Positions 1 to 14,715 are shown, counted from the first letter of the stretch. The stretch is DNA of 64,000 bases from an uncultured Dehalococcoidales bacterium (GCA_964453525.1 CAYVOV010000023.1:262-64261); one strand, 5' to 3'. Made by a program: numbers and translations. The notes: generated by a model from the sequence alone, not told the origin.

Positions 1-39
1 AATAGCCTGAAAATGAACGCTTGAACTCAGAAAACAGAC

Positions 40-82
40 GCACACGAAGGGATGTAATAGTCCCTTTTTGTGCGTTTTTTTT
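40..82 (+). terminator. Rho-independent terminator-like hairpin (first of a tandem pair)
   Basis: Stem GCACACGAAGGGA (40-52) / TCCCTTTTTGTGC (61-73), 8-nt loop, then a T8 run at 75-82. Confidence 0.6.
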
Positions 83-93
83 GCCATTTTCCA

Positions 94-133
94 GGGGATA
101 GTTAGAGGGTGACCTGATACTATCCCCTTTTTT
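94..133 (+). terminator. Rho-independent terminator-like hairpin (second of tandem pair)
   Basis: Stem GGGGATAGT (94-102) / ACTATCCCC (119-127) followed by T6 (128-133). Confidence 0.55.
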
Positions 134-179
134 CGTTTCCACAACAGTTCATATCCGGAATACCCTGGACAGGGGGGTA

Positions 180-208
180 TTGACGACCAAGATAGTCGAA
201 TATAGACT
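180..208 (+). promoter_or_regulatory. Candidate sigma70-type promoter of the 231-1925 cassette
   Basis: TTGACG (180-185), 17-nt spacer, TAGACT (203-208), located right after the two terminators and 23 nt upstream of the first start codon. Confidence 0.35.
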
Positions 209-230
209 TAACCATACTAGGAGGTGTATT

Positions 231-422
231 ATGGCAATCATTTTAGGGAGTGGCGCTTTCAGGATATGGGTAGGAAAAGACAAGAGGACTGGAAAGAGTA
301 ATAATATCGGTATTAGATTACAGGAGAAGAAATTTCCCAGCCAGGTAAATTTAGACCAGACTGTCCAGACGTTAGTAGACAAGATAGAGCAGCTAATACG
401 TAAAGAGTGCTCTTGGGTGTGA
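231..422 (+). CDS. Small hypothetical protein (63 aa), first gene of the cassette; possibly a small DNA-binding/antitoxin-like protein
   Basis: Internal ATG of ORF 180..422, preceded by a strong SD (TAGGAGGTGTATTATG). No recognisable motif; a beta-strand-then-helix pattern (NIGIRLQEKKF...LVDKIEQLIRKE) is only suggestive. Confidence 0.4.
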   Translation: MAIILGSGAFRIWVGKDKRTGKSNNIGIRLQEKKFPSQVNLDQTVQTLVDKIEQLIRKECSWV

Positions 423-439
423 TTTGTGGGACATAAAAT

Positions 440-1135
440 ATGAGTAAATTCTTCATACCTGCAAATCGTCCAGAAGACTGGGCGCCTTTGTTAGCCGAAC
501 CTGGCAAGCACTGGAGAACAGGCTACTCAGCAAAAGCACTTGCCTACTGCTGGCAAGAAGCTAAGGGCTTTCCTGCAGAAGTGAAAAAGGTGTTCCGGGA
601 CTCCGGTATTCCCTCGTTCAGGAACGCTAAAATGCTAATGGCTTTCCCCGAATACAAGGTATCGTTGCCAGGTGGGAAGAGAGCCTCACAAAGTGACATC
701 TTCCTTCTGGCCAGGGGAGACGACAAGTTAATCTCTATCACAGTAGAGGGGAAGGTCGATGAACCATTTGGAGAGGTAATATCCGATTGGAAACTAAAAG
801 ACATGGGTGGCAAGAAAGACAGGCTTGCCTTCCTATGTGACCAATTAGGGGTCAATCCCGCTACGGTTGATAACATTCACTATCAACTCCTACACAGAAC
901 GGTATCTGCCATAATTGAAGCACAGAACTTCAATGCCCCAATTGCTTTAATGCTTGTTCACGCCTTCGAGAAGACCACAGAGAAGTATGATGCAAGCTTC
1001 CACGCCTATTGTAACCTCTTAAATTTATTTGGCAAAAGGGGTAGGGAAAATACCATTGTATCATTAGGAAAATCGGGCTCGGTTGATTTGTATGTAGGGT
1101 GGGTCAAAGGTAATGATAAGTACCTAGTATCGTAG
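440..1135 (+). CDS. Hypothetical protein with a PD-(D/E)XK-like nuclease motif (231 aa)
   Basis: SQSD-IFLLARGDDKLISITV-EGK gives a D...(17 aa)...ExK pattern in a strand-like context. The conserved-looking N-terminus is FIPANRPEDWAPLLAEPGKHWRTGYSAKALAYCWQEA. Starts 18 nt after the previous gene. Confidence 0.45.
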   Translation: MSKFFIPANRPEDWAPLLAEPGKHWRTGYSAKALAYCWQEAKGFPAEVKKVFRDSGIPSFRNAKMLMAFPEYKVSLPGGKRASQSDIFLLARGDDKLISITVEGKVDEPFGEVISDWKLKDMGGKKDRLAFLCDQLGVNPATVDNIHYQLLHRTVSAIIEAQNFNAPIALMLVHAFEKTTEKYDASFHAYCNLLNLFGKRGRENTIVSLGKSGSVDLYVGWVKGNDKYLVS

Positions 1136-1198
1136 TAGGCCCCGTCGTTAGCACTCAATATTTTATTTTGTTCTGGATACTGTAAAGGAGGTCATTAA

Positions 1199-1423
1199 AT
1201 GCAAAACGAATCAAATACAGATGAACCAATGGAAATTTTTGATGTTGATAATGTTCGTATAGGTTTTAATCCTTCTGTTGATACTCCTCGAGGGAAGACT
1301 AGAAAGTCCCTTACTATAGATGTTCACGTTACAGATAGGTGGTATAGATTTAGGCTAGAAGATGTAGTCTGCGATCTTTTCAATCGCTTCTATAATGAAC
1401 AGGTAGCTAGTAGATATGAATGA
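1199..1423 (+). CDS. Small hypothetical protein (74 aa)
   Basis: Strong SD (AAGGAGGTCATTAAATG). Its 3' end overlaps the next gene by 8 nt (1416-1423), suggesting translational coupling. Confidence 0.45.
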   Translation: MQNESNTDEPMEIFDVDNVRIGFNPSVDTPRGKTRKSLTIDVHVTDRWYRFRLEDVVCDLFNRFYNEQVASRYE

Positions 1424-1925
1424 TAGTATACAAAGAGGCATTACTGATATTGAAAATCTCTTCAAGTGTGTATGCATCGACTTTGATGATGATATTTGGA
1501 GATATAACATTCCTTCCTCATCCGGCTGGTATTTGATAGAAACAAATACACCAATTGAGATACTGAAATCCATAGGCACTCCACAGCACAAGGCTCATAT
1601 CAACATACCTAAAACTATAGGAAGTGCCGTTAGTTTAATCAATCTTGGTGCTGCCATCCAGCAGTCAGGTGATGACCACTACGTAGTCTATAACGGAGAA
1701 GCCCGAAATTTGAAAGCACGTGCGAGAGAGCATATATGCGGTCATGGTAAAACGTTCTGCCTTGGATTGGCTGAATATCCGATCTTGCGTAAATATAGTT
1801 GGCGGTTCTGCTATGCGCCGGCATCCGAATGTGGAAATTTGCGGGATGCTGACAAAGCAGTGAGAGTGCTTTTTGAACAGGTGTGGAGAGCAAAACATGG
1901 GTGGCCGATTTTATGTAAGAAATAG
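1416..1925 (+). CDS. Hypothetical protein with divergent GIY-YIG-like nuclease motifs (169 aa)
   Basis: SGWYLIE (GIY-like) and YVVYNGEARNLKARAREH (YxG-A-NL-R-H, YIG-like), plus a later LFEQVW...GWPILC. The spacing between the two motifs (~55 aa) is much longer than canonical. Confidence 0.4.
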   Translation: MNDSIQRGITDIENLFKCVCIDFDDDIWRYNIPSSSGWYLIETNTPIEILKSIGTPQHKAHINIPKTIGSAVSLINLGAAIQQSGDDHYVVYNGEARNLKARAREHICGHGKTFCLGLAEYPILRKYSWRFCYAPASECGNLRDADKAVRVLFEQVWRAKHGWPILCKK

Positions 1926-2011
1926 CGTAGGATATTACGCAAGAAAATGGTATAATTATAGTCGTGGAACATGTCCAAATAGTGTCACCTGGGCACAAGT
2001 AGGAGGTTAAT

Positions 2012-2107
2012 ATGTTTGGGATTACAGTGGGTAATAGGCGTGTACGTTTACATATTGATATTGCTGGCTTCGGTACCAATATTTCAAGAAGCAGGTGCAC
2101 AGCTTGA
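2012..2107 (+). CDS. Possible 31-aa basic peptide
   Basis: AGGAGG SD 5 nt before the ATG and an extended -10 (TGgTATAAT, 1948-1956) upstream. Too short to validate. Confidence 0.2.
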   Translation: MFGITVGNRRVRLHIDIAGFGTNISRSRCTA

Positions 2108-2161
2108 CTTAGTCAGGATAATTGCCGAGTTCCTCCAGAGGATACTCTGGTAGAGAGCAAA

Positions 2162-2193
2162 ATGGGGAGTGTGGCGTTCACCATGCTCCCCAT
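2162..2193. terminator. Bidirectional terminator-like hairpin between convergent island genes
   Basis: ATGGGGAG (2162-2169) / CTCCCCAT (2186-2193) with T-rich flanks on both strands. Confidence 0.45.
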
Positions 2194-2265
2194 TATTATT
2201 GTGTTTAAGTGACCTAATCACTAACGGGAACCTAATAACTGCCCTTTGCATTCAGATGTAACTTC

Positions 2266-3807
2266 TCATCCGGTATTCTCATTCATTCGACTTGCTTTCA
2301 GCCTTTCATATTCAGTTTCAACTTCTTGCCATTGAAGATAACCGTATGGGGATTTCTTCTTATATTCAGGGTATTTCTTAATCCATTCATCTCTAATTGA
2401 AAGCCAGAAGTTTTCAACTGCCTTGTAACCTGCTTTATTGTCGGGTGGTCCGCCCTTTTGTTCTACAAGATCAATAAATTCCTGTTCAATTTGTCTCTGC
2501 CGTGTCTCATTGCTGGTCTTCGCCTTGACATCTACGTCTTCTAGGGCTTCTTTGTCATCAAAAGTCTGCTTATCGAGAATAAACCTCTCCCTAGCGTCTG
2601 CTGGCAGAAGATCAAACCCCTCATGCAACGCCTGTAATTCTTTTTCGTGCAACTTTAGCCAGGTTTCCATCTGTTCGGGCGTAACTTCGTACCCGACCAT
2701 TTTCAGGAGGGTAGCGTTGAATGGCGGTGTGGCGTAGCCCGGCCCTTCTACTCTATTCGCAAGCGCCCATGTCTCGATAAGGGAACCCGTTCTCACCGGA
2801 TGAAGCAACACCCGCCTGTCCGAATCCGTTTTTACCCATTCGAGCAGTTTACGTCTAATGCACAGCTGGCGAGAATACATAGAATCGTCAGGAAAAGAAG
2901 ATATTGCGAAACCTCTAGGTTCTGTTTCTAGAACGTGCTTTATTGCTCCCTGTATCTCCGGTTGTTCAGGTAGGTTATTCCATAAAGGCCCCTTGCTTAA
3001 GTAACTAAGCCAATAGGCAGCTACCAAGTCATCCTCTTCTTGCAAGACATCATCAGGAGATGCAAACTCAGCCATAAGTTTCATATCTTCAGGAGGCTTG
3101 CTCCTGACGCTACGCCATACGGCATCTTCCACCGAACTCACGCTAATAGACGGACTCGTAAGTGGTGTGCCAAATTTCTCAATTTTGGTTAACGCTTCTT
3201 GAGAATAATTTAAATGAGATACTTTGCCTAACCTTAATGCTGTTGCACGTTCCCAGTTAAGCATGAATGCTGAGTCTAGATTTGTGGTATCAAAGTACTT
3301 TTCTCCTGTGATGTGAGAGGCACGCTCAAGTAGGCTGTATAACCAACTTTGTCTGATCAGCAATAAGTTCCTGTTGACCTTGTCAGAATATGCACCTTGT
3401 CTGGAGGGTAACAATTCATTCAAACCTGGGGGAAAAGATTGGGGGAAAAGGTTTCGGATATGGATTATCCATTTTGCCTGCCTAATGCTAATCGGACTTC
3501 CCATCGCTAGTGAGGCTCTCCAAATATCAAACAGATCTTTGTTGGCTTCCGGTGGTAACACATATTGCACCGAAGCGCCAATAGACCATGGTTCATCTTC
3601 ATCTGTTAAAGGGAGATTACGACCTTCCGATATTAACTTAATCATTGTTTCTTCGGTAGGAGGGACTTCTCCCATTTCATCTTTTATGAATTTTCTTAAC
3701 TCCACTGCAAGCGCAAGTCTTGGGATGTCTTTATCTCGCAATGCTCTAGTGTATATAAGCTGTTTAATATGAGGTTTTATTGATGGCCGTCCTCTTTTTG
3801 TAGACAT
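2266..3807 (-). CDS. Orphan 513-aa protein, unknown function
   Basis: Long uninterrupted ORF in low-GC DNA. Basic N-terminus (STKRGRPSIKPH), acidic/coiled C-terminal third. No motif I can assign. Confidence 0.6.
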   Translation of the reverse strand: MSTKRGRPSIKPHIKQLIYTRALRDKDIPRLALAVELRKFIKDEMGEVPPTEETMIKLISEGRNLPLTDEDEPWSIGASVQYVLPPEANKDLFDIWRASLAMGSPISIRQAKWIIHIRNLFPQSFPPGLNELLPSRQGAYSDKVNRNLLLIRQSWLYSLLERASHITGEKYFDTTNLDSAFMLNWERATALRLGKVSHLNYSQEALTKIEKFGTPLTSPSISVSSVEDAVWRSVRSKPPEDMKLMAEFASPDDVLQEEDDLVAAYWLSYLSKGPLWNNLPEQPEIQGAIKHVLETEPRGFAISSFPDDSMYSRQLCIRRKLLEWVKTDSDRRVLLHPVRTGSLIETWALANRVEGPGYATPPFNATLLKMVGYEVTPEQMETWLKLHEKELQALHEGFDLLPADARERFILDKQTFDDKEALEDVDVKAKTSNETRQRQIEQEFIDLVEQKGGPPDNKAGYKAVENFWLSIRDEWIKKYPEYKKKSPYGYLQWQEVETEYERLKASRMNENTG

Positions 3808-3945
3808 TCTTTTATTTTTTCCTTAAATTCACAGACTCGTATATAATTATTTCCTTTATGTATATATTATAATCTCTTACAATAATAATATAATTCATAC
3901 AAAACAGCAATGTCAAAAAGGATAGGCTAAGCAAGCGGGTCTCAA

Positions 3946-4329
3946 TTGAAAACTATTAACTATAAAGACACAAACGAAGTTCTTCACATTAATAGATACC
4001 ATCTTCTATTGGCGCTGGAACGATTGGAGAAGAAAAATCCGAAGTTCCCTTTGTTCGAACATACAATGATTCCGTTTGGTATTCTAATTTCCACACTGGT
4101 TGCCCTCTTGACAGCAGATTTTAAGAATTCATTAGGACTGAGCGCTGACGTTTGGCAGATGTTCATATTGGCAGTAATGGTCGTGTCAGCTCTAATTACG
4201 GCAGTCTTCCTCGGATTGTGGATGAGGAATAGAGGACGATATAAATTAAGAACTCCGGATGAAATCGTCGAGGGAATAATCAAGGAAATGGAACATCAGA
4301 AAAGGGCCTTGACAAACTCACAAAAGTAG
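3946..4329 (+). CDS. Small membrane protein (127 aa, two predicted TM helices)
   Basis: TTG start. Hydrophobic stretches MIPFGILISTLVALLTADF and MFILAVMVVSALITAVFLGLWM. Confidence 0.45.
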   Translation: MKTINYKDTNEVLHINRYHLLLALERLEKKNPKFPLFEHTMIPFGILISTLVALLTADFKNSLGLSADVWQMFILAVMVVSALITAVFLGLWMRNRGRYKLRTPDEIVEGIIKEMEHQKRALTNSQK

Positions 4330-4348
4330 TATAGACTTAGTCTATACT
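4328..4348. promoter_or_regulatory. Perfect 9-bp inverted repeat (candidate operator or stem-loop)
   Basis: AGTATAGAC-TTA-GTCTATACT overlaps the stop of the membrane-protein gene and lies 25 nt upstream of the AbrB-like gene start. Confidence 0.35.
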
Positions 4349-4372
4349 ATAGCTGTGCGAGGGGTAATCATA

Positions 4373-4828
4373 ATGGATATGATAGCAACGAGAAGGAAGC
4401 CGTTCGCGACTGGTCAGTCGAAGGGGGTTACGCTGCCGGGTAAGATGACAATATCAGAAGAGGTTTCGATGGCAGCGAGTGATCGACTTATCATCATGGA
4501 TACCACCGGCGAAGTCCCTGAAGACAAGCTGCTCCAGTTCTACCTGCAGTATGTTGAGCCTGCTTTCCAGAACTGGTGGCAGGCCCAGAAACGATCATCT
4601 AGGCAACCTCACGGCTTCAGAGTTATGCAAGAAGATGGACCCGCCCCAGCGCAAGCTATAAAGCCGCCTGAACCAACGGTTGTAAAACCAGAAGCTCAGA
4701 TCCAACCGGTGGTCTGTCCACGATGCGCTGGTCAAATCTCATGGAATCTTGACCTTGGTCTTGAAGGAGTCTGTCCTTACTGCGGCTTGTTCCTTAAGCT
4801 GACACCAGATGAGAAAGGAGGAAAATAA
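4373..4828 (+). CDS. AbrB/SpoVT-like N-terminal domain plus C-terminal zinc-ribbon protein
   Basis: ATG at 4373 with GAGGGG SD 8 nt upstream. N-terminal FATGQSKGVTLPGKM resembles the swapped-hairpin AbrB/MazE fold. C-terminal CPRC...CPYC. Confidence 0.4.
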   Translation: MDMIATRRKPFATGQSKGVTLPGKMTISEEVSMAASDRLIIMDTTGEVPEDKLLQFYLQYVEPAFQNWWQAQKRSSRQPHGFRVMQEDGPAPAQAIKPPEPTVVKPEAQIQPVVCPRCAGQISWNLDLGLEGVCPYCGLFLKLTPDEKGGK

Positions 4829-5300
4829 ATTGACGTTTCGGAGTCAAGAGATGCAATCACAAAACCAAACCGGTGATATCATGAAATGGATACTTGCAAT
4901 AGTAGAAAAAGTTAATCAGGATAGTAGATTAGCGCCTAATAAAGCTATTCTAAAGCGCATGCAAGAAACAATAGACATTTATGGCTCTGCCAAAATTTGG
5001 GAAGTGATTAAGCAGTTTTCTATAAACATTGGTTCGAACAAAGCAATGCTCATGGAAGAACTGTTCCATCAGTGTCCGAATTTTCCTGATTTATTTGAAA
5101 CGGATAAGACTATACCACTCGCCCTTAAGCAGTGGTATGAACATCACTCGGTAGAGGCTAATCGATTTCAAAGAGTTACTTCAGCTATTTTGAGAGCTAA
5201 TCCGGCTGTCGAATGGGAATTCGATACTTCACCTGATGCCGATAGAGATTTAACTCCTATTATGGATATGCTATTTCGTAATACGGAGGTATCAAAATGA
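4809..5300 (+). CDS. Hypothetical protein (up to 163 aa) translationally coupled to the recombinase; candidate accessory or directionality factor
   Basis: Overlaps the upstream gene by 20 nt and the recombinase start by ATGA (5297-5300). No recognisable motif; the start is uncertain (alternative ATGs at 4851 and 4881). Confidence 0.4.
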   Translation: MRKEENKLTFRSQEMQSQNQTGDIMKWILAIVEKVNQDSRLAPNKAILKRMQETIDIYGSAKIWEVIKQFSINIGSNKAMLMEELFHQCPNFPDLFETDKTIPLALKQWYEHHSVEANRFQRVTSAILRANPAVEWEFDTSPDADRDLTPIMDMLFRNTEVSK

Positions 5301-7042
5301 AGGAAAAAGCGGTAACTGCAGAACGATTTGATAGCCTTGTTGATATGGCTGCTAAAGAAGCAAGGTACGAGGAAGGCTTTGGAGTAAAGGGATGTGATCT
5401 TGCCAATTCATGTTGGTGGGTTTCGTATGTCAGACAAAGTTGGGAGGAGCAAGCGAACAACAATCGCTTGCCAGAATACTTACTCACCTGCGCCAGAGAG
5501 GCAAGGAAGCTGGGTGTTGTAGTTCCGATAGAATACATACTCTATGATACTGTTACGGGGGAGCATCTTGAGCGCCCCAATATGATACACCTTCGCAAAT
5601 TATTAACAGAACGGCGTACCTCAGGAGTAATCTTCCCTGCTCTAGACCGCTTGTCCCGGGAGCCATTGCACCAACAAATCTTCGAACTGGAAGCAGCTCA
5701 TTATGAGATTCAAATTCATTACGCTGACGTACCTAACGGAAACGATCCAAACAGCCAATTTACCAGAACAATTTTAGCTCATGCCGCTAAACTGATAAAA
5801 CTGGCAAACCGGCGTAACAATCGCGGTGGTAATATCGGACGGGTGGTAAGCGGAAACGTGCCTGCCGGTAAGCCATCTTATGGTTATATTTATCGCGCAG
5901 AATACCAGTCATTAGAACATGGTAAGCGTAAACTTATCAGGGCTTGGTGGGACATAAACGCACTAGAAATCGATGGTACATATAAAATGGGGTCCGAGGC
6001 CTGGGTAGTGAAACAGATTTTCCGCTGGATTGGACTTGAAGGGAGAAGCACTTTCTGGGTTTCCGAAGAACTTAATCGAATGGGAATCAAACCTCGATAT
6101 GCCGATAAATGGTCTCCAGCTCTGGTTGGTTTCATCTGTAAAAACCGCGCGTATACAGGAAAACATGCCTATAACAAAGCCTGCTATGTCACCAATCCCG
6201 ATAGGCCGCTAAAAGATATTACTGCCGAGATAAAGCGGACACTACGAAAAGCTAAACCGGAAGATGACTGGGCACATTTTGAAGTTCCGTTGTTGGTATC
6301 CGAAGAATTATGGCAGCGAGCAAATGACAATATCCGTGAGCGAGGCAAGGGAAGAGGAAAAGCCGGGAAAACGATTCCAGCACTGTTCAGGGCAAGGGTC
6401 TTTTGCCCAAAGTGCGGTCATATTATGAGGCTTCATAGGGATTCGACCTGCCCCTGGCTTACTTACTATGTCTGCCGTACTCAAGGATGTAGAATGAAGT
6501 TCATCCGTGTTTCCCAGCTTGATGACATAGGATGGGAGAATGTTGTTAACCTTTTACAGAAACGTTCATTTATTGATGCCAAAGCAGAGAATACGAGTAA
6601 AGATGATGGTGGAATTCAGAAACGGATCAGACTAGAGTTGTTTCAAAAGAGGGAAGCAGAGAGGAAAATCGCAAGAATTCAAGATGATCTCCTCAGCGAT
6701 GAACCAGTCATTACCAAACAAGAAGCTCTTACTAAAATAGGAGAACTTCGAAATGTTATTGAAAAAGCCGACAATGAAATTGCCAGACTACAAGGCATAG
6801 TCCAGACAGCAAAGCAGTCTGAAGAAAAAATTGAAGCATTAAAGAAAGCTCTTGAGGAGCTAAGAGATATAAATCTTAATACGGCAACTTTCCAGCAGAA
6901 AGCCGAGTGGATAGCTCGTCTTGGTGTCAAGGTATATCCAGCTAAGGATTTAACCAACTATCACATAAAATGCGGAATAAAGATTACAGAGCCCCAGAAG
7001 GTTTCATGTTACAAAACCAGCATCGCATCACCGAAGCTATAG
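5297..7042 (+). CDS. Large serine recombinase/integrase
   Basis: Resolvase-type catalytic domain (VSYVRQS with catalytic Ser, ERPNM, ALDRLSRE), recombinase domain, Cys-rich zinc ribbon (CPKCGH...YYVCRTQGC), and a long coiled-coil C-terminus. Confidence 0.85.
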   Translation: MKEKAVTAERFDSLVDMAAKEARYEEGFGVKGCDLANSCWWVSYVRQSWEEQANNNRLPEYLLTCAREARKLGVVVPIEYILYDTVTGEHLERPNMIHLRKLLTERRTSGVIFPALDRLSREPLHQQIFELEAAHYEIQIHYADVPNGNDPNSQFTRTILAHAAKLIKLANRRNNRGGNIGRVVSGNVPAGKPSYGYIYRAEYQSLEHGKRKLIRAWWDINALEIDGTYKMGSEAWVVKQIFRWIGLEGRSTFWVSEELNRMGIKPRYADKWSPALVGFICKNRAYTGKHAYNKACYVTNPDRPLKDITAEIKRTLRKAKPEDDWAHFEVPLLVSEELWQRANDNIRERGKGRGKAGKTIPALFRARVFCPKCGHIMRLHRDSTCPWLTYYVCRTQGCRMKFIRVSQLDDIGWENVVNLLQKRSFIDAKAENTSKDDGGIQKRIRLELFQKREAERKIARIQDDLLSDEPVITKQEALTKIGELRNVIEKADNEIARLQGIVQTAKQSEEKIEALKKALEELRDINLNTATFQQKAEWIARLGVKVYPAKDLTNYHIKCGIKITEPQKVSCYKTSIASPKL

Positions 7043-8040
7043 AAGCGGTATTTCTCCGTTATAGCTTCCTGGTATGCCCGTTTTATCAGATCATTGCCGG
7101 CGAAGGCGGAGACAAGCATCAACAGGGTTGACCTCGGCAGGTGGAAGTTCGTTATCATGGCATCTACCACCCGGAACCTGTACCCGGGCAGGATGAAAAG
7201 GTCTATCCAGCCTTCGAACGGCCGTATCTCAGCAGTATTATTCGCCTGAGCTGCCGTCTCGACAAGCCTGACCGAGGTGGTACCGACGCAGATGACACGC
7301 CGTCCCTCCGACCTTGCCAGTGACAGCTCCCCGGCGACTTCCCTGCTCAATACACCGTATTCCCGGTGTATTTGATGCTGCTGCGGGTCTTCCTCACGCA
7401 CCGGGCGGAAGGTGTCCAGTCCGACATGGAGCGTGGTGAAAAGGCATTTTACTCCTTTTGTTCTGATTTGACTCAGGAGTTCCGGCGTGAAGTGAAGCCC
7501 GGCGGTAGGCGCGGCGACGCTGCCGGCAACGTCGGCATAAACGGTTTGATAGCGTTCCGGGTTCTCAAGCGGGACATGGATGTAAGGAGGCAGGGCTATT
7601 TCACCGACCTTAAAGAGCGGCTTTTCATCGGAGAATCGGAGCAGCCGGATTCCCCCTTCGCCAATCCCGATTGCCTCGGCAGTGACTCGTGAATCACTTC
7701 CATCACGGGATATTTCAATTACAGCGCCGGCTTTAACGCGTCTGGCAGGTTTGACAAGGGCTTCCCAGGCATCACGACGCTGCCGGCGCAGCAGCAGGAT
7801 TTCCAGCTTCCCTCCACTCTCAGCCTGTTTCCCTTTAAGGCGGGCGGGAATGACCCGGCTGTTATTGAAGACTAGGACATCACCTTCGCGGAGAAATTCA
7901 ACCACTTCATAGAACCTGCGGTGCTCAAATGACCCATCTGCGCGGTTAATCACCAGTAGCCGTGATTGCGTCCTCGGCTCAACCGGAGTCTGAGCGATAA
8001 GCTCCGGTGGTATAAAATAATCAAAATCGCTGGTTTTCAT
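7009..8040 (-). CDS. queA: S-adenosylmethionine:tRNA ribosyltransferase-isomerase
   Basis: MKTSDFDYFIPPELIAQTPVEPR, ...GLHFTPELL..., C-terminus RFYSFGDAMLVL. The ORF extends to 8049; the ATG at 8040 matches the usual QueA N-terminus. Confidence 0.9.
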   Translation of the reverse strand: MKTSDFDYFIPPELIAQTPVEPRTQSRLLVINRADGSFEHRRFYEVVEFLREGDVLVFNNSRVIPARLKGKQAESGGKLEILLLRRQRRDAWEALVKPARRVKAGAVIEISRDGSDSRVTAEAIGIGEGGIRLLRFSDEKPLFKVGEIALPPYIHVPLENPERYQTVYADVAGSVAAPTAGLHFTPELLSQIRTKGVKCLFTTLHVGLDTFRPVREEDPQQHQIHREYGVLSREVAGELSLARSEGRRVICVGTTSVRLVETAAQANNTAEIRPFEGWIDLFILPGYRFRVVDAMITNFHLPRSTLLMLVSAFAGNDLIKRAYQEAITEKYRFYSFGDAMLVL

Positions 8041-8060
8041 GGGAAGCATCTAATTTCCCG

Positions 8061-8489
8061 TTATGCCGGTCTATTATAATAGAGAGGCGCCATTAAGATA
8101 TCCGAAAATACAATCGGTTTATCTACTCTTTTAAAGTTGAGCGGGCAGTGTACCAGCCCCTTTGGGACGTAGACGAATGTGGTAGTGGTGATTATATGTT
8201 TTTCCCTTTCCTCTCCTAAATACAGTTCTACCTCCGCCCCGAAATCCTTATAGTCCATCGGATTTGCTCCTATAAAACAGAGAATTTCATCCTGGTCATG
8301 CACGTGCCCTTCTTTAGCCATAAGAAAGGGCGAATAAATTGCCTCCATTGTAATACTGAAAGGAGGGCTGCCCCACTCTTCTACCACGGACTCCTGTCCG
8401 ATGCGTATCACCGGCACCTCAATCTCCGGATGGCGGGCTTTTCCCAGCGGCTCTCTAAGGATATATTTGCCATACTTTGTCTCTGCCAT
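8061..8489 (-). CDS. Cupin-fold protein, function unknown
   Basis: ATG at 8489 with AAAGGAGAAGG SD. GHVHDQDEILCF...YVPKGLVHCP resembles cupin motifs. Confidence 0.5.
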   Translation of the reverse strand: MAETKYGKYILREPLGKARHPEIEVPVIRIGQESVVEEWGSPPFSITMEAIYSPFLMAKEGHVHDQDEILCFIGANPMDYKDFGAEVELYLGEEREKHIITTTTFVYVPKGLVHCPLNFKRVDKPIVFSDILMAPLYYNRPA

Positions 8490-8591
8490 TATACTACCTT
8501 CTCCTTTCACTGAACGGTCTGTGGAAATGAGAGGAACCGTCAGGATGAACCGGCTCACGCGTTGATAGTACTTCCCTGATAGACTGGTGTC

Positions 8592-8627
8592 AAGAAAAAG
8601 AAGGGGGCGAGGTTTAACCTCGCCCCC
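8592..8627 (-). terminator. Rho-independent terminator of hsp20
   Basis: GGGGGCGAGG (8603-8612) / CCTCGCCCCC (8618-8627) with a T-rich tract on the minus strand (8592-8602). Confidence 0.6.
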
Positions 8628-8648
8628 TTTCCCGCAGCCACCACACCA

Positions 8649-9116
8649 TCACTTGGCTTTAATTTCTATACGTTTTTTCCCGGCCTCCTCAGCTTTGGGG
8701 AGTCTCATTTCCAGCAGTCCGTTCTTAAAAGTGGCTGAAATGTTTTCCTCATCAACCGGGAAAGGCATTGTCATTCTTCGTACGAACTGCCCGAAGTGAC
8801 GCTCTGAAATATAATGGTCTGAGTCCTCTTTCACTTCTTCCTGTTTTTTCTCAGCCTTAATTGTCAGCACGTCACCTTCAAGACTGATATCCAGGTCTTT
8901 CTTCTTTATTCCCGGCAGCTCCGCCTTGACTACAAGGTCATCCTCCTCCCGGTAAACATCCAGGCTGTGAGCAATGCTGGAATCGAAGGTAGTCCGCCTG
9001 CCATTAAATATCTCTCTGGCCATCTGCTCAACTTCATCAAGGAGACTGAACGGATGCGCCACAGGCTCAAACCGGACCAATGCCCTTGCCGGATTTCTTC
9101 TGATAATTGTCGTCAT
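8649..9116 (-). CDS. Hsp20/alpha-crystallin small heat-shock protein
   Basis: ATG at 9116 with GAAAGGAGG SD. DVYREEDDLVVKAELPGIKKKDLDISLEGDVLTIKAE...GLLEMRLPK is a typical ACD. Confidence 0.85.
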   Translation of the reverse strand: MTTIIRRNPARALVRFEPVAHPFSLLDEVEQMAREIFNGRRTTFDSSIAHSLDVYREEDDLVVKAELPGIKKKDLDISLEGDVLTIKAEKKQEEVKEDSDHYISERHFGQFVRRMTMPFPVDEENISATFKNGLLEMRLPKAEEAGKKRIEIKAK

Positions 9117-9209
9117 TTTGCCTCCTTTCTTTATGTTCATATTTTTGTTTATATTATAAGAAATTTCTCTGTCCGAGTCTGCGACTTATATCACAAATGT
9201 ACAACCAGT

Positions 9210-9404
9210 TTACCCTTCTTCAGTTCCTGGTTCCCTGTTTGGCTGCGTGTCACCGACGATGATCGGTTCCTTATACTCCTTTACGGGCTTCAACTCTTTT
9301 CTAAAAGAACACTGAAGGCACTGCTCATACCAGTTGTCCAGGTCTCTGTCAATGAGCAGGTCACCACCGCATCTTGGACAGCTCTTCAATCTCCATCTCA
9401 CCAT
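9210..9404 (-). CDS. Small zinc-ribbon protein (64 aa)
   Basis: CPRCGG...CLQC; ATG at 9404 with GAGGGGG SD 8 nt upstream. Confidence 0.45.
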   Translation of the reverse strand: MVRWRLKSCPRCGGDLLIDRDLDNWYEQCLQCSFRKELKPVKEYKEPIIVGDTQPNREPGTEEG

Positions 9405-9597
9405 ATCTGTCACCCCCTCTACATCAGGCCTATCTGGTATCAGGTTAATTCATTTTATATGGTGAAAATGGCAGTGTATGTGATTTAGGTCTCACAGTCA
9501 ACAGAACGGAAAACTGGAGAAAGAATAATACCCAAGAGGTTAGGTTTGAGGAAATCTATGGAGTAACTAAGCAGGCAGGTAAAGCGGTTATCGTCTC

Positions 9598-9813
9598 TTA
9601 TTTCTCTTCGATGACTACTTCAAAGGGGCAGGATATAGCCCTGGTCGGGCAGACAACCTCGCACTGGCAGCACCATCTTGTGCAGGCACTGCATTTGCTA
9701 CCTTCTATATAAACTGCAAGGCTATCTTTAATAGCCAGAGCATTACAGGTGCATACTTCCACGCAAAGTCCGCACCCATTACATTTTTGCGGATTTATTA
9801 CGACAAATGACAT
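9598..9813 (-). CDS. 4Fe-4S dicluster ferredoxin-like protein
   Basis: CNGCGLCVEVC and CSACTRWCCQCEVVCP Cys clusters. Confidence 0.7.
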   Translation of the reverse strand: MSFVVINPQKCNGCGLCVEVCTCNALAIKDSLAVYIEGSKCSACTRWCCQCEVVCPTRAISCPFEVVIEEK

Positions 9814-9872
9814 CCTTATTTACTCCATTTCAGTCTAGGCTTAATGTCAACTTTTAGTCTGTGACTTTTGTC

Positions 9873-10550
9873 TCAAAGAGACATCTCCACCCTGTCCCTG
9901 AGCGCCTCCTTATCAGTAATCACGATACGGTTGCGCTCCAGCCTGATTACTCCCTCATCTTCAAGGGTCTTAAGCGACCTGCCGACCACCTCACGGGCAG
10001 TGCCGGCCATAGCCGCCATATCCTGCTGGGTAAGGCGCGGTCCGTTTCCTGTGGAAGCTCCATCGCCGGTCTGCTGCAACAATATCCTGGCTACCCTGCC
10101 GATAACATGCCTGAAAGATAAATCTTCAACAAGTGAAACAAGCTCACGCACCTGCTCAGCCAGTACCTTTATTGTATTGGCTGCTATCTGCGGGTGAGTC
10201 TCCAGAAGGTCTTTCATATCACTTTTTCTCAGCTCATTGAGGATAACAGGCCCCATTGCCTGAACGCTGGCCGGATTGGTGCCGCCATCCAAAACAGGAA
10301 CATCATTAAACGACTCGCCGGGACGGATGATGCTGAGAATCTGTTCCTTACCCTCGGCTGAAGTCTTGAATACTTTCGCCGCTCCTGAGTGGATAAAATA
10401 CAGAGCATCCGCAGGGTCATCTTCATAGATAATTATCTCTCCGCGCTCGGCCTTCTTCTCAATAATGAGCTGCCCGATGGATTCAAGTTCTTCGAGGCCC
10501 AATCCACTAAAATACGGTATGGATTTTATAAAATCTATATCTATTGCCAC
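9873..10550 (-). CDS. Crp/Fnr-family transcriptional regulator
   Basis: cNMP-binding beta-barrel (YFIHSGAAKVFK...GESFND) plus C-terminal HTH (LTQQDMAAMAGTAREVVGRSLKTLEDEG). Confidence 0.85.
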   Translation of the reverse strand: MAIDIDFIKSIPYFSGLGLEELESIGQLIIEKKAERGEIIIYEDDPADALYFIHSGAAKVFKTSAEGKEQILSIIRPGESFNDVPVLDGGTNPASVQAMGPVILNELRKSDMKDLLETHPQIAANTIKVLAEQVRELVSLVEDLSFRHVIGRVARILLQQTGDGASTGNGPRLTQQDMAAMAGTAREVVGRSLKTLEDEGVIRLERNRIVITDKEALRDRVEMSL

Positions 10551-10655
10551 ATTTACTGTTCTTTCCTGGAATTCGATGACATAAGACAGGTGATTTATTG
10601 TATCACGACTTCAAGACATATGCTACTCCTGAGCCTGGAAAAAAATCGTAATCAG

Positions 10656-10673
10656 GTGTAATTTGTCTTACAC
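10656..10673. promoter_or_regulatory. CRP/FNR-like palindrome in a divergent intergenic region
   Basis: GTGTAA-N6-TTACAC (compare TGTGA-N6-TCACA), between the Crp-family gene and the CDF exporter. Confidence 0.3.
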
Positions 10674-10745
10674 CACAAACATTCGGTATTATTATGTTAG
10701 CAGAAGTGAGTATTATTTTAAAAGTTTTCAGAGTGGGACGAGAAA

Positions 10746-11693
10746 ATGCATGACCACAGAAGAGAAGCCGTACATGAGACCCATAACGGTCGCAACAGGT
10801 TGAAGATTGCCATTATCATTGTCGCCGTAATCATGATAGCCGAGGTAGTGGGCGGCATATTAAGCAATAGCTTAGCCCTGCTTGGCGATGCCGGACATAT
10901 GCTTGTGGATACCCTCGCTCTCGGGTTGAGCCTGTTCGCCGTAACCATTGCCGCAAAACCGGCAACTTCAAGTAAAACCTACGGATATCACCGTGTAGAA
11001 ATAATGGCAGCCCTGGCCAATGGCATCCTGCTGACTTTCGTCGCTGCCTATATATTTTATGAAGCTTACCAGAGGTTCTCTGAACAGCCTTCGATTCGCG
11101 TACCGCTGATGCTACTTGTAGCCGGTATCGGACTGGCAGCCAATCTGGCAGGCATTTTCTTGTTGAGAAAAGTAAGCCACGATAACCTTAATATAAAAGC
11201 CGCCTTCTGGCACATTCTAGGTGATTCCATATCTTCATTAGGTGTGATAGTCGGCGGCATACTAATCTCCGTTACCGGTCTGGTTATATTTGACCCGATT
11301 ATTGCCATTCTCATCGGCTGCATAATACTCTGGGGAGCAATACGTCTGGTTAGAGAATCGGTCGATATTCTACTCGAGGCGGTGCCGAAGCATATTAATA
11401 TTGAAGAAGTAATTGGAATGCTGAAGGGCATTAACGGAGTGGAGGAAGTCCACGACGTCCACATCTGGACTATTACCTCAGGCATATATGCCTTGAGCGC
11501 TCACTTGATTATTGAAGACCAGAGCGTCAGCAATAGCGCTGAAATTGTGGAGGCGGTAAATAGAGAGATACGCCAGCGTTTCAGCATCACCCACACGACG
11601 TTACAACTTGAGTGTGAGAGGTGTGAAAGTTGCCCGAGTGGCATTATCTGCCAGGTACAAAGAATTGGCGAGCAAATGGTGGAGCAGCAATAG
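10746..11693 (+). CDS. Cation diffusion facilitator (CzcD/ZitB-like) metal exporter
   Basis: Six TM helices, HMLVDTLAL and HILGDSISS motifs, C-terminal cytoplasmic domain VHDVHIWTITSG. Confidence 0.85.
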   Translation: MHDHRREAVHETHNGRNRLKIAIIIVAVIMIAEVVGGILSNSLALLGDAGHMLVDTLALGLSLFAVTIAAKPATSSKTYGYHRVEIMAALANGILLTFVAAYIFYEAYQRFSEQPSIRVPLMLLVAGIGLAANLAGIFLLRKVSHDNLNIKAAFWHILGDSISSLGVIVGGILISVTGLVIFDPIIAILIGCIILWGAIRLVRESVDILLEAVPKHINIEEVIGMLKGINGVEEVHDVHIWTITSGIYALSAHLIIEDQSVSNSAEIVEAVNREIRQRFSITHTTLQLECERCESCPSGIICQVQRIGEQMVEQQ

Positions 11694-11710
11694 CCTTTCT
11701 TTTTCCTCTT

Positions 11711-12235
11711 TTATCCCCTCATACTGTAGATACAGCCGCAGTAGTTCTGCCGGTATAGAGCCAGCTTTTCAGCAAGCTCTACCGAACGCTGGAACCCCGC
11801 TTTCTTCTTAAAGTCCCTTTCCAGAAATCTGTCTCCGCCGATTTCCTTACCCAACTGGTTAATCACCGCCGCCGGTTTATGGGGGCTTACCGTCAAGCTC
11901 GTGGTAAAAGCGTCCAGGTCTGAGTCAAGAAGGTAGAGCCATGTTTTATTCAGCCGGTGCCTGAAACAGACCTCACATCTCCTGCCGCCTTCAGGCTCGT
12001 CCTTTAATGACTCAGTCTCCTTTAACCATTCTTCTGGAGTATAGGAACCTGTTTCAAGGGGAAAACTCATTTTCTCGGCTACTTTTTGAACCGCTACAAG
12101 TCGCCTTTCGTATTCTTCCCGCGGATGGATGTTCGGATTGTAGAAGTAGCCGGTGACTTCGTGCCCTTCTGAAGTTAACCTCTCCACAACGCCGGCAGCG
12201 CAGACCCCGCAGCAGATATGCAGCAATAGTTTCAT
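11711..12235 (-). CDS. queH: Epoxyqueuosine reductase QueH (DUF208)
   Basis: LLLHICCGVCAAG, RRCEVCF, QNYCGCIYS signature cysteines. Confidence 0.8.
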   Translation of the reverse strand: MKLLLHICCGVCAAGVVERLTSEGHEVTGYFYNPNIHPREEYERRLVAVQKVAEKMSFPLETGSYTPEEWLKETESLKDEPEGGRRCEVCFRHRLNKTWLYLLDSDLDAFTTSLTVSPHKPAAVINQLGKEIGGDRFLERDFKKKAGFQRSVELAEKLALYRQNYCGCIYSMRG

Positions 12236-12888
12236 CAGAATGAAGTCTCCAGAATTCTGGCCGCTTCGGTGAAATCGGTCAGCTCAGTGTAATTAAGCTC
12301 GGGGTGCTGCTGGCAGTATTCAAGCAACTCAGCGGCAGCGAAGATATGGTGGCACTTTATCGCCGAAGCGATGTCCGAGACTCCGTTTCCCATGTATATT
12401 ACCCGATAGCCTTCTTTGAGAAACAGGTCCACGTATGCCTCCTTGAAACCGTCGTCCATCTGTACTCCGCCCGGTCCGATGTACCGGGCATCAAGGCCTC
12501 CGGGCAGAAAGCGGGTCTCGGCGGCGAGCACTTCAACATCTCCAAGGTCGATATTCCTTAAGACGTCCTTTATATAAAAGTCCAGGCCGTTGCTGATGAT
12601 GACAAAACGAAAGTTCTTTCTGCGGCAGGCAGCCACCAGCTCGGGAAGGCCGGGTCTGAGGTCCATAGTTCGGTGAGCAACCTCGAGCAGGCTTTCGCGG
12701 TCGGCTTTTACCATGGCAAAGGCTTGCGTGTTGAATCGACCGACCGATATTTTACCATCCCGGTACTCTTTCAGCATTGTTCGCCAGTCGCCTTCGGCAT
12801 AAGCCTCCAGCATCATAAAACTTACGTCTTTATCGGTAATCGTGCCATCGAAATCACACTGCACCACGGTCTTTATTGCCTCTGCCAA
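12235..12888 (-). CDS. HAD-IB family phosphatase (MtnX-like)
   Basis: DFDGTITDKD motif I, ISNG, GNGVSD; 1-nt overlap with the queH start. Confidence 0.7.
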   Translation of the reverse strand: MAEAIKTVVQCDFDGTITDKDVSFMMLEAYAEGDWRTMLKEYRDGKISVGRFNTQAFAMVKADRESLLEVAHRTMDLRPGLPELVAACRRKNFRFVIISNGLDFYIKDVLRNIDLGDVEVLAAETRFLPGGLDARYIGPGGVQMDDGFKEAYVDLFLKEGYRVIYMGNGVSDIASAIKCHHIFAAAELLEYCQQHPELNYTELTDFTEAARILETSF

Positions 12889-12935
12889 GTTAATAGCTAC
12901 CTCCTGATGCGTTATATTGTGGTTCTTTGCTTATA

Positions 12936-13126
12936 TGTCGTTGCGAGCCACGATGAAATCGTTTTCCTTATTTGTCGTTGCGAGCCCGCCAAAGGCGGGC
13001 GTGGCAATCACCGCGTTCGAAAGAGGAGATTGCCACGTCGTACGCCTCTGGCGTACTCCTCGTAATGACAGTTGTATTTGAGATTGCTTCGTCGTCCCGA
13101 CATAGTCGGGTCTCCTCGCAATGACA
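12936..13126. repeat. Array of hairpin repeat units, family B (GTCATTGCGAG.../...CTCGCAATGACA)
   Basis: Four units with conserved arms and variable palindromic cores. Unit 13026-13070 is 44/45 identical to the reverse complement of 18115-18159. Confidence 0.8.
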
Positions 13127-13134
13127 GTTCGGTT

Positions 13135-14715
13135 CTATTTCTCTCTATCGCGTAGCACTCTCCGCAGCATTTTCCCCACCGGTGTCTTGGGCACTTCATC
13201 AATGAATTCCACTTCCCGGATACGCTTGTATGGAGCGATTCTCCCGGCACAGAATTCTATAAGCTCTTCCTCCGTAACATGCTGTCCCGCCTTGAGCACG
13301 ACACAGGCTTTAGGTATCTCACCGGCCATTTCATCAGGCTTTCCTATCACGGCACACTCGCTGACGGCATCATGTTCGTAGAGAACGGCTTCAACCTCGG
13401 CAGGAGCGATTGTATAGCCCTTGTAATTTATCGTTTCCTTTTTCCTGTCTAGGATATGAAAGTAGCCATCCTCATCCATCATCGCCAGGTCGCCGGTATA
13501 AAGCCAGCCGTCGCGGAGAGCTTCCTGCGTATCTTCGGGGCGGTTGAGATATCCCTTCATTACCTGCGGTCCCCTGATTATGAGCTCACCGGACTGCCCC
13601 GGAGGCAGGTCAATCTCTCCGGTTTCCTCGTCAACGATGCGGGCGTCGGTATCAATGGTAGGTATGCCGATTGTCCCGGACTTTATTCTTTGCAGGGGAG
13701 AGTTATGGGTCTCCGGAGAAGCCTCACTGAGGCCATAACCGAGGACCATTTTTACGCCGGTTATCCGCTCCCATTTATCCCTTATTTCAGGCGGAATTGG
13801 CATTGCCCCATTCTTGACATAACGTAATGATGAAAGGTCATATTTACCCATTATCGGGCTGTTTACCAGCATGGTGAATAATGAGGCGGCACCGTACATT
13901 ACCGTCGCTTTCTCCTTCTCAATCGTTCCCAGCAGCAAATCGGCATCGAAGCGAGGTATTATTATCACCCTGGCACCGCTGTAGACAGGGGAATTAACGC
14001 AGGTGCTGCCTCCCCAGCTATGATAGAAGGGCAGCAGGCCGATAGCAATGTCCCGGTGACTCCAGCTGAACCAAGCGGCGTTCTGCATGGCATTTGCCAC
14101 CAGATTGTAATGGGTAAGCAGCACCCCTTTGGGGAGGCCGGTGGTTCCTCCGGTATAGACGATTGCTGCCACGTCATCCTTCGGTTTCACAGTGAATTCG
14201 GGAGGAGAGGGAGGATAGTCCTCAAGGATTTTCTTCAGAGGAACTATGTTATCTCCCGTTCCGGAATCAGCCAAGACTACTGTTTTAAGCATCGTACCTG
14301 TCCTTACCTCGTTGACAACCGGATATAGCTCGTTACCAGTGATGATAGCGGTGGCTCCGGTATCGGCAATCTGGTGTTTCAGTTCCGCCTGCCGGGAAAG
14401 CGGATTGACGGTGGTAACGGTGGCTCCGGCTTTCAGTATCCCGTAATATCCGATGACGAATTCGAGACTATTGCCCAGGAAGAGCAGCACCTTATCACCA
14501 ACGCTTACCCCGAGGTCATGAAGTCCGGCAGCAAGGCGAGCCGTCATTTCATCGAGCTCCCGGTAACTCAGGTTCCGTTCTCCCAGGCTGAAAGCGGTAC
14601 TGGCAGGCCACTTTTCCGCCGCCCGCGATAGCAGACCGGAAAGCGGTATCTCCAGATAGTCAAGTGTCTTAGGGACACCCTCCGGCCAGAAGTTAAACCA
14701 CGGTCTTTCCTGCAC
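13135..14715 (-). CDS. Long-chain/medium-chain acyl-CoA ligase (AMP-binding, FadD-like)
   Basis: IVYTGGTTGLPKGV AMP-binding motif, GYGLSE, YTGD, PKTPVGKMLRR. Confidence 0.85.
   Translation of the reverse strand: MQERPWFNFWPEGVPKTLDYLEIPLSGLLSRAAEKWPASTAFSLGERNLSYRELDEMTARLAAGLHDLGVSVGDKVLLFLGNSLEFVIGYYGILKAGATVTTVNPLSRQAELKHQIADTGATAIITGNELYPVVNEVRTGTMLKTVVLADSGTGDNIVPLKKILEDYPPSPPEFTVKPKDDVAAIVYTGGTTGLPKGVLLTHYNLVANAMQNAAWFSWSHRDIAIGLLPFYHSWGGSTCVNSPVYSGARVIIIPRFDADLLLGTIEKEKATVMYGAASLFTMLVNSPIMGKYDLSSLRYVKNGAMPIPPEIRDKWERITGVKMVLGYGLSEASPETHNSPLQRIKSGTIGIPTIDTDARIVDEETGEIDLPPGQSGELIIRGPQVMKGYLNRPEDTQEALRDGWLYTGDLAMMDEDGYFHILDRKKETINYKGYTIAPAEVEAVLYEHDAVSECAVIGKPDEMAGEIPKACVVLKAGQHVTEEELIEFCAGRIAPYKRIREVEFIDEVPKTPVGKMLRRVLRDREK

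Follow-up and report, generated by a model that had tools for sequence, protein, structure and literature searches.

A serine-recombinase element at the 3' end of queA in an uncultured Dehalococcoidales bacterium and its relatives

We analyzed a 64,000-nucleotide (nt) stretch of DNA, here called the window, from G000, a metagenome-assembled genome (MAG) of an uncultured Dehalococcoidales bacterium (GCA_964453525.1; 3.5 Mb, 60 contigs, 48.1% GC). Positions 1-7042 of the window very probably form the integrase end of a ~22.1-kb site-specific integrative element inserted at the host gene queA. We observed both junctions of this element, its empty site in relatives, a conserved backbone and variable cargo. 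The window corresponds to positions 262-64261 of contig C23 (CAYVOV010000023.1), the left end of which lies just 261 nt upstream. C23, C30 and C36 denote contigs of G000, other G numbers denote related genomes, and L numbers denote loci.

The right junction (attR) lies within the window, where three features overlap.

5297 to 7042, plus strand: large serine recombinase (integrase), 581 amino acids (aa) in the integrated state
7009 to 8049, minus strand: queA (S-adenosylmethionine:tRNA ribosyltransferase-isomerase), the host target; full-length match to Pfam Queuosine_synth, E 3e-128
7009 to 7032, unstranded: attR core, the 24 nt TTACAAAACCAGCATCGCATCACC, an element-borne substitute queA 3' end (..GDAMLVL*)

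The integrase and queA converge, and their open reading frames (ORFs) overlap by 34 nt. The integrase contains the Pfam domains Resolvase (residues 42-166, E 1.6e-8, passing the gathering score), Recombinase (PF07508; residues 234-349, E 2.9e-14) and Zn_ribbon_recom (PF13408; residues 363-415, E 2.2e-6), the latter two also above the cut-off, and it matches PHROG 95, integrase, with an E value of 1.9e-48. An earlier reading of this DNA from its sequence alone (the sequence-only reading) had placed a large serine recombinase at the right edge of a low-GC island, next to queA; the domains, the PHROG match and the overlap bear this out. Reading the translation by eye, we located a putative nucleophile, S48, in the motif Y44-V-R-Q-S48...Q52. 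A phmmer search of the integrase against the PDB gave no match at E <= 0.001, and no relatives were found in IMG/VR. Its close relatives come from records named Dehalococcoidales and Dehalococcoides mccartyi.

The C terminus of QueA aligns through the last residue of the QueA proteins of relatives; the gene stays intact, with its last eight codons coming from the element. On the opposite strand, the same 24 nt serve as codons of the integrase. The crossover dinucleotide, CC, occupies positions 7031-7032, and host DNA begins at 7033 (GAAGCT). The sequence GAGCCCCAGAAGGTT(T/A)C(A/G)TGTTACAAAACCAGCAT, antisense at the queA stop codon, recurs beside queA in several genomes. We found this right-junction sequence in G011, in the Dehalococcoidales MAGs L020 and L021, and in L022, where the integrase is truncated, with remnants in G004 and G030. 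It is kept in all occupied genomes and is absent from empty sites. In relatives without the integrase, queA has a different end followed by unrelated DNA.

At its left edge, the window opens within the element.

1 to 133, plus strand: end of the element's DnaN-like sliding-clamp gene, with two tandem intrinsic terminators

The last 86 clamp codons fill the 261 nt before the window, with the stop codons at the window start. The clamp C terminus ends ..LFTSPDYELVVMPM, followed by an acidic tail, and C23:3-260 aligns with residues 338-425 of the D. mccartyi clamp. Full-length relatives of 425-429 aa match PHROG 947, DNA polymerase processivity factor (E 8e-35), and Pfam DNA_pol3_beta_2/3. The terminators, at ~37-82 and 94-133, fold at -50 kcal/mol (z = -6.2), and the clamp end with its terminator region is conserved in C36 and G011. 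Both terminators belong to the clamp gene of the element and not to a flanking host gene, as had been considered.

The N terminus of the clamp, residues 1-50, is at the end of contig C30 and shares 86% identity with the D. mccartyi clamp. Because C30 ends at residue 50 and C23 starts at residue 338, a gap of ~861 nt falls inside one gene; a piece of this length would be under the apparent minimum contig size of the bin, ~1.5 kb. The earlier suggestion that the island may continue upstream of the window was correct: the clamp gene runs into C23 and the rest is on C30. In a metagenome search with the element's primase, we obtained three Joint Genome Institute (JGI) contigs (L078-L080; primase 83-86% identical), in which the clamp lies divergently upstream of the primase at the place of attL and no attP was present. 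These contigs break near clamp residue 50, like C30, and the repeated breaks suggest a conserved stretch that collapses assemblies. Read in the orientation of the window, C30 contains, in order:

C30, 1: host genes, the last of which is CoA-disulfide-reductase-like
C30, 2: 885-aa primase-like protein with a Toprim domain, matching PHROG DNA primase families (E 1e-24 to 1e-72)
C30, 3: four small ORFs
C30, 4: NotI-family endonuclease (E 1e-63) and D12 adenine methylase (Pfam)
C30, 5: six reverse-strand genes without annotation
C30, 6: Cys-rich 267-aa protein, then the start of the clamp gene

The left junction (attL) is on the reverse complement of C30 at 14310-14333, where TCACAATAATAACATGGCATCGCC is followed by the element terminus TATACTGGCTTTTAGACACG. 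Directly after the reductase-like gene, C30 reads ..CAGGTTTG TCACAATAATAACATGGCATCGCC and then, across the junction, TATACTGGCTTTTAGACACGTAG.. The 24 nt TCACAATAATAACATGGCATCGCC are the reverse complement of GGC GAT GCC ATG TTA TTA TTG TGA, which encodes ..GDAMLLL*, the native queA end. When the C30 host flank is joined to position 7033 of the window, QueA is again in frame and ends ..YRFYSFGDAMLLL*. The 24 nt at attR differ from this displaced end at 8 positions and are therefore element-borne. Searches of G000 for a second queA end by short-word BLAST and with the 24-mer at up to 5 mismatches found none; the displaced end, differing at 8 of its 24 positions, was reached only by locating C30 via the clamp gene.

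The attL and attR sequences differ at -3 (G/A) and +1 (T/G), so that they share only CC, a block the size of a serine-recombinase crossover. The core would be 2 nt long; were the difference at -3 younger than the integration, the two would share a block of 8 nt. The reconstructed attP junction is ..CATCACC joined to TATACTGGC.., and the attB junction is ..CATCGCC joined to GAAGCT.. No convincing dyad symmetry was seen around the CC of attP or attB (5 and 4 of 28 positions, respectively). The size of the element is the sum of 13,993 nt on C30, the gap of ~861 nt and 7,293 nt on C23, or ~22.1 kb, of which ~21.3 kb is assembled. In G004 and D. mccartyi, too, a queA-end repeat is followed by this same element terminus. 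Just outside the left junction, with one host gene between, C30 carries an islet of 30-37% GC (reverse complement 10685-12451) that encodes a 325-aa protein with an EVE domain, beside three small ORFs.

A complete, contiguous copy of the element with the same gene order, ~23.6 kb long, is present in D. mccartyi (JAYFQN010000003.1):

JAYFQN copy, 1: host ABC-transporter gene, then attL (TTACAAAACCAGCATCGCATCGCC joined to TATACTGGCTTTTAGACACG)
JAYFQN copy, 2: 878-aa primase (86% identical) and the same small genes
JAYFQN copy, 3: cargo consisting of a type I restriction-modification system, a TIR protein and a HEPN/RES protein
JAYFQN copy, 4: 172-aa protein, clamp and McrBC cargo
JAYFQN copy, 5: 119-aa and 156-aa proteins, integrase and attR/queA

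For the strain with this copy, the reconstructed 719-nt empty site matched three complete Dehalococcoides genomes end to end (97%, 94% and 82%). These three loci are, judged by that match, unoccupied attB sites. Empty queA sites are also found in many relatives, including ones of the same family as G000. The search for an empty site that the sequence-only reading had proposed thus yielded a continuous attB in three Dehalococcoides genomes and empty sites within the family, but no relative with the left flank of G000.

The element, intact or as a remnant, is at queA in G000, G011, G004, G034, G046, G030, two further MAGs and D. mccartyi. Within the 38-genome family, an intact close integrase is present in 2 genomes (G000 and G011), and queA-adjacent remnants are present in G004, G034 and G046. 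The integrases of MAGs whose QueA proteins are 64-72% identical are themselves 76-92% identical. Between G000 and D. mccartyi, amino acid identity is 91.7% for the integrase, 85.9% for the primase and 78% for a 163-aa protein encoded next to the integrase, versus 58% for QueA; an integrase with ~92% identity lies beside queA in several D. mccartyi assemblies and in G011. Synteny around queA is poorly conserved among relatives. This patchy presence, with an integrase far more conserved than the host flank, supports the earlier view of the island as horizontally acquired DNA. The view that it is no tailed prophage also holds.

Several occupied loci have a more complicated structure. In G004, an interval of 31.4 kb lies between queA-end repeats; we considered it as a copy of the same element and rejected it, as only the termini are common (a left end of 170 nt and a right end consisting of a 250-nt integrase remnant) and the interior is unrelated. 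G030 (L015, G030:C178) has two attR-like junctions 850 nt apart, at 2780-2960 and 3620-3760. In each, what is left of an integrase 3' end is fused to a queA end; the second alone adjoins the real queA. This double junction reads as evidence of repeated insertion and decay at the site. In D. mccartyi AP017649.1 (L052/L061), an identical integrase module is joined via a truncated mcrB to a phage segment encoding DNA polymerase A, VapE, SNF2, HNH, a small terminase, SAM synthetase, a ParB-methylase and, at the end, a large terminase. A related free phage contig, L062, goes on with portal, protease and capsid genes. The fusion in AP017649.1 indicates that the integrase module is evidently exchangeable with phages.

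The composition of the DNA changes at the same place as its gene content. The GC content is 43.0% in window positions 1-7008 and 50.5% in the remaining window, which places positions 1-7008 among the lowest 6.5% of 7-kb windows of the genome; by tetranucleotide distance they are in the top 10%. Sliding GC is below 45% across most of 1-7000 and 55-58% at 7000-8000, and GC at third codon positions is 23-49% in the island genes and 59% in queA. The shift sits exactly at the integrase/queA border. The composition check suggested by the sequence-only reading (GC, tetranucleotides and third codon positions) thus separates 1-7008 from the rest, and the low-GC stretch of ~7 kb that it described is real, but the drop is modest. 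Its hand counts for single lines starting at 4921, 5701, 7081 and 13501 were numerically exact (33.3%, 38.3%, 53.3% and 58.3%) but came from extreme lines, given the 43.0% average: means of lines inside and outside are 7.5 points apart, with a standard deviation per line of 7-8 points. The whole element has 44.6% GC and the host flanks ~50%. Scans for Rfam families and tRNAs gave no hits, with no tmRNA or tRNA in window positions 1-12000.

The backbone of the element runs from attL through the 885-aa primase-like protein, four small genes, cargo slot 1, the Cys-rich 267-aa protein and the DnaN-like clamp to cargo slot 2 (134-4279), an AbrB/zinc-ribbon protein, a 163-aa protein, the integrase and attR/queA. 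Two conserved genes lie immediately upstream of the integrase.

4379 to 4828, plus strand: backbone gene for a protein with an AbrB/VagC-like N terminus and a CxxC..CxxC zinc ribbon, 149-157 aa
4809 to 5300, plus strand: backbone gene for an all-alpha protein, 156-163 aa, the stop codon of which overlaps the integrase start (ATGA)

The AbrB/zinc-ribbon protein shares 69-78% identity with its counterparts in D. mccartyi and L020 and has 132 homologues, all from Chloroflexota or metagenomes, one of which is named VagC by JGI. Across an alignment of 30 sequences, its four cysteines show little or no variation; the predicted structure is of low quality (pLDDT 58). The protein may regulate the operon that contains the integrase. 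The 163-aa protein is 75-78% identical in L020 and D. mccartyi, and its homologues form 13-14 representative clusters among 1.8 billion proteins. Its model, which is moderately confident (pLDDT 73, pTM 0.65), is all-alpha and had no structural match in the PDB or BFVD. We regard this protein as a candidate recombination directionality factor or accessory protein. Position and conservation make both integrase-coupled genes candidates for excision control.

Cargo slot 2 separates the clamp gene from these backbone genes.

134 to 4279, unstranded: variable cargo slot 2, between the conserved clamp gene and the integrase module
232 to 422: cargo ORF, 63 aa
440 to 1135: cargo ORF, Pfam DUF6946 (E 7e-81)
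1199 to 1423: cargo ORF
1416 to 1925: cargo ORF with a weak, sub-threshold GIY-YIG-like signal
2266 to 3807, minus strand: cargo ORF, 513 aa
3946 to 4329, plus strand: cargo ORF, 127 aa, with two transmembrane segments
2266 to 4329, unstranded: divergent pair of the 513-aa (minus strand) and 127-aa membrane (plus strand) proteins, with an AT-rich gap between them

Homology to the G011 element covers C23:23-394 and resumes at C23:4541; the 4.1 kb between are replaced by other genes. Slot 2 contains McrBC in D. mccartyi, a metallo-beta-lactamase-fold protein in L020, and a TPR/PRiA4_ORF3 protein with a 1437-aa sacsin-domain protein in G011. Across the copies examined, the slots contain restriction-modification, McrBC, TIR and HEPN/RES genes, a sacsin-domain giant and a metallo-beta-lactamase-fold protein. 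Such contents are typical of defense islands. By analogy with these copies, the unannotated cargo of the window is a candidate defense or addiction set.

PADLOC gave no match for any window protein, and an NCBIfam search of the window proteins returned just a sub-threshold XisF. Apart from the integrase, DUF6946 and the GIY-YIG signal, no window protein received a function from Pfam, PHROGs, PADLOC or NCBIfam. The sequence-only reading had described the island as made of orphan genes; this holds for the 513-, 157- and 163-aa proteins insofar as none has a known function, but they have 36 homologues, 132 homologues and 13 homologue clusters, respectively, and DUF6946 is a named family. Rather than being orphans, the 157-aa protein, the 163-aa protein and the integrase belong to the conserved backbone.

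The ORF at 232-422 has a strong Shine-Dalgarno sequence, AGGAGGTG, and lies directly ahead of the DUF6946 gene, with which it probably forms one cassette (232-1925). None of the 36 homologues of the 513-aa protein is annotated. The same divergent 513-aa/127-aa pair is found in two unrelated contigs (L073 and L074), and a sigma-70-like promoter match (11/12) lies at 3916-3887 on the minus strand. By its occurrence in these contigs, the pair behaves as a portable cassette of two genes. A homologue of the 513-aa protein with 47% identity is found in a different islet (L075, L076), directly upstream of a tyrosine integrase; it overlaps the integrase start and lies opposite a 63-aa gene and an AAA_25 gene. 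The position beside a mobile-element integrase is usually taken by a CI-like regulator. The homologue abutting the tyrosine integrase suggests that the pair may be a mobile-element regulator.

We propose that the serine recombinase joined attP, which overlaps its own 3' end, to attB in the last queA codons, crossing over at the CC that lies 24 nt upstream of the queA stop codon. The native 24-nt queA end was thereby moved to the far left junction, and a near-synonymous substitute keeps QueA intact. The element would be excised as a circle by the integrase and a directionality factor, for which the two coupled upstream genes are candidates. It might then replicate as an episome with its own primase and clamp, while its cargo slots would carry anti-phage or restriction genes. 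Because the element has no capsid or conjugation genes of its own, transfer between cells would be helper-borne.

The integrase frame depends on which of these states the element is in. In the integrated state, the ORF ends ..IASPKL*, antisense through queA codons. In the reconstructed circle, it continues for 22 codons, ending ..IASP-ILAFRHVVSNIETFVELALIDS*, which would give a protein of 601 aa in place of 581. This extension differs between G000 and D. mccartyi at three sites, all synonymous third positions; with G004 included, the first 60 nt have 8 variable sites, 6 of them at third positions (p ~0.02 by our binomial estimate), in a comparison of very few sequences over a stretch that doubles as an attP arm. 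The third-position bias hints that the 22-residue tail may be translated from the excised form.

Several points weigh against the proposal of one ~22.1-kb element inserted once. The join between C30 and C23 is inferred, with ~0.86 kb of the clamp gene unassembled, and a second clamp C terminus, on C36 (79% identical), makes a tandem or composite arrangement possible. The empty site of G000 itself rests on the displaced queA end, with no observed empty locus, and the G000-type flank, a CoA-disulfide-reductase-like gene beside queA, was found in none of the 38 family genomes. At the attL of D. mccartyi, the pseudo-end (L065 5754-5777; L051 ~11712-11735) is TTACAAAACCAGCATCGCATCGCC, which is of the element type and identical to the substitute end of G011; the native queA end in the empty Dehalococcoides genomes (L067-L069) is TTATAAAACCAGCATGGCATCACC. 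An element-type end at this attL means that a single integration is insufficient and implies an earlier history of the site. Finally, an exact left-terminus 21-mer, used to look for the circular attP junction, was absent from JGI metagenome contigs and IMG/VR.

We therefore weighed other arrangements. C30 and C23 could be the outer ends of at least two elements arrayed at queA, in which case the insert would exceed 22 kb and the window would hold the queA-proximal element. The second clamp C terminus, which opens C36 with the same terminator, fits such an array, as do the attR-like remnants 850 nt apart in G030, the 31.4-kb queA-end interval in G004, the multiple copies of clamp-bearing elements in G044 and G012, and the tandem accretion of ssrA islands in Dehalococcoides (PMC3146451). 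Over its 13.9 kb, however, C36 passes into host-like genes and shows neither an integrase module nor an att-like sequence, no C30 element protein has a paralogue elsewhere in the bin, and the contiguous D. mccartyi copy equals C30 plus C23 gene for gene at a similar length. We consider an array unlikely. In C36 itself (1-13921), the clamp C terminus matches the start of C23 at 79% nt identity, and a methyltransferase/endonuclease pair and TIR-like proteins come next (by eye); further genes identified by eye are QueC-like, Tgt/DpdA-like and Fic-like. The contig looks like a second clamp-bearing element with its upstream half outside the bin.

That the insertion is a defective or cryptic tailed prophage, with its structural genes deleted or outside the bin, is very improbable. 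Large serine integrases are common in temperate phages, and in AP017649.1 the identical integrase module adjoins genes for DNA polymerase A, VapE, HNH and the small and large terminases; there, however, the large terminase abuts the truncated mcrB, suggesting that a fusion or deletion occurred secondarily. We scanned the window ORFs and the C30 element ORFs of at least 186 aa, leaving C30 ORFs under 100 aa unscanned, and found no capsid, portal, terminase, tail or lysis family (Pfam/PHROG) and no Pfam match to a relaxase, coupling protein or type IV secretion component among these proteins; an oriT is possible. The lack of virion, relaxase and secretion families indicates that the element is neither a tailed prophage nor a conjugative element. 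Some 21.3 of the ~22.1 kb is assembled, the missing 0.86 kb falls within the clamp gene, and the contiguous JAYFQN copy is also without virion genes.

Least probable of all, and close to untenable, is the sequence-only reading's minimal islet, taken here as a self-contained unit of ~7 kb with its left end near the terminators at 40-133 and integration as its only clear function. Low GC within the window is indeed limited to 1-7008, and the terminators do lie at the left edge. Yet what precedes the terminators on their left is the 3' end of a gene of the element, one that is also conserved in G011, D. mccartyi and C36, and no att-like sequence occurs near 1-133. The true attL on C30 and the contiguous D. 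mccartyi copy refute the islet: the window holds the integrase-proximal third of an element whose C30 part includes a primase, the clamp, a NotI-type restriction-modification system and attL.

The ~22.1-kb queA element is well delimited and belongs to a kind of serine-recombinase island already known in the class. The nearest precedent, in the same class, is the ssrA islands of Dehalococcoides, which have the recombinase DsiB at the island edge and a 20-bp ssrA repeat at their borders; dsiB always overlaps the att site, with its stop codon outside the island (PMC3146451). Like those islands, the queA element has a large serine recombinase at its edge and regenerates the 3' end of a single-copy conserved gene with a short repeat (20 bp there, 24 nt here). 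Its integrase ORF likewise crosses att, with a stop codon that depends on the integration state (the 34-nt queA overlap here), and variable cargo, tandem remnants and a lack of transfer genes are also shared. Unlike them, it targets queA rather than ssrA, and the scanned proteins include no second serine recombinase (DsiA), RecF, ParB or Mom but a primase and a clamp instead. The best match of its integrase in three Dehalococcoides reference genomes is only 24% identical (E 1e-6), which sets it apart from DsiB. No reductive dehalogenase cargo was seen in the queA element.

Other known systems resemble the element in part. Domain architecture (catalytic, recombinase and zinc ribbon) is shared with the integrases of phiC31, Bxb1, A118 and SPbeta. 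Temperate-phage serine integrases use a 2-nt crossover without long direct repeats and need a separate directionality factor for excision. Unlike those phages, the queA element has no virion genes and preserves its target gene, which several of them do not. SCCmec is, like the queA element, a cargo carrier without transfer genes. It is a two-recombinase system with different cargo and no such replication module, from staphylococci, an unrelated phylum. SCCmec with CcrAB is also a serine-recombinase island in the 3' end of a housekeeping gene (orfX/rlmH) that is not inactivated (partly PMC3146451).

IME1 of Dehalococcoides is 21-28 kb long and has a primase-helicase, no tailed-phage hallmarks, a XerCD-type tyrosine recombinase at a tRNA, a pI-like ATPase and a terminal Cro/CI repressor (bioRxiv 10.64898/2026.09.15.751708). 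The queA element is similar in size, host class, primase and lack of tailed-phage hallmarks but differs in its serine recombinase at queA, with no Zot/pI match and no terminal Cro/CI repressor. P4-type and other phage satellites also combine an integrase and a primase with variable restriction or defense slots and no structural genes. The queA element, with a serine integrase and twice their size, has no recognized Psu, Sid, Delta or small-terminase hijacking genes, and we know of no helper phage for it; what can be claimed by analogy is a resemblance to P4-like satellites, not membership. In our literature search, no paper connected queA with an attB site of a serine integrase.

Taken further, these properties could describe a capsid-less, self-replicating hitchhiker, satellite or vesicle-borne, that shuttles defense cargo at family-level distances in Dehalococcoidia, with a split integrase and new cassettes. 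As a conjunction, this is conceivable but doubtful. If it were true, full integrase would be made only from the circle, with the conserved 22-residue tail ILAFRHVVSNIETFVELALIDS, and the integration state would set the form of the integrase and perhaps its directionality. The DUF6946/GIY-YIG-like set and the 513-aa/127-aa pair would then be new defense or control modules.

Dehalococcoidia have tiny genomes, with most adaptive genes on poorly understood islands. To our knowledge, descriptions in the class have so far been limited to ssrA islands, IME1 and a few prophages. The queA element adds a second family of serine-integrase islands, with attL, attR, attB and attP at base-pair resolution, and it is a clear case of an integrase ORF that crosses attP, a feature noted but left unexplained for DsiB. 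Its backbone is 86-92% identical between hosts whose QueA proteins are just 58% identical; the location of the target within a conserved QueA motif (..YRFYSFGDAML) may explain this wide host range. For a clade that lacks genetics, the defined integrase and att pair would be a potential genetic tool, and the two cargo hotspots offer places to mine for defense genes.

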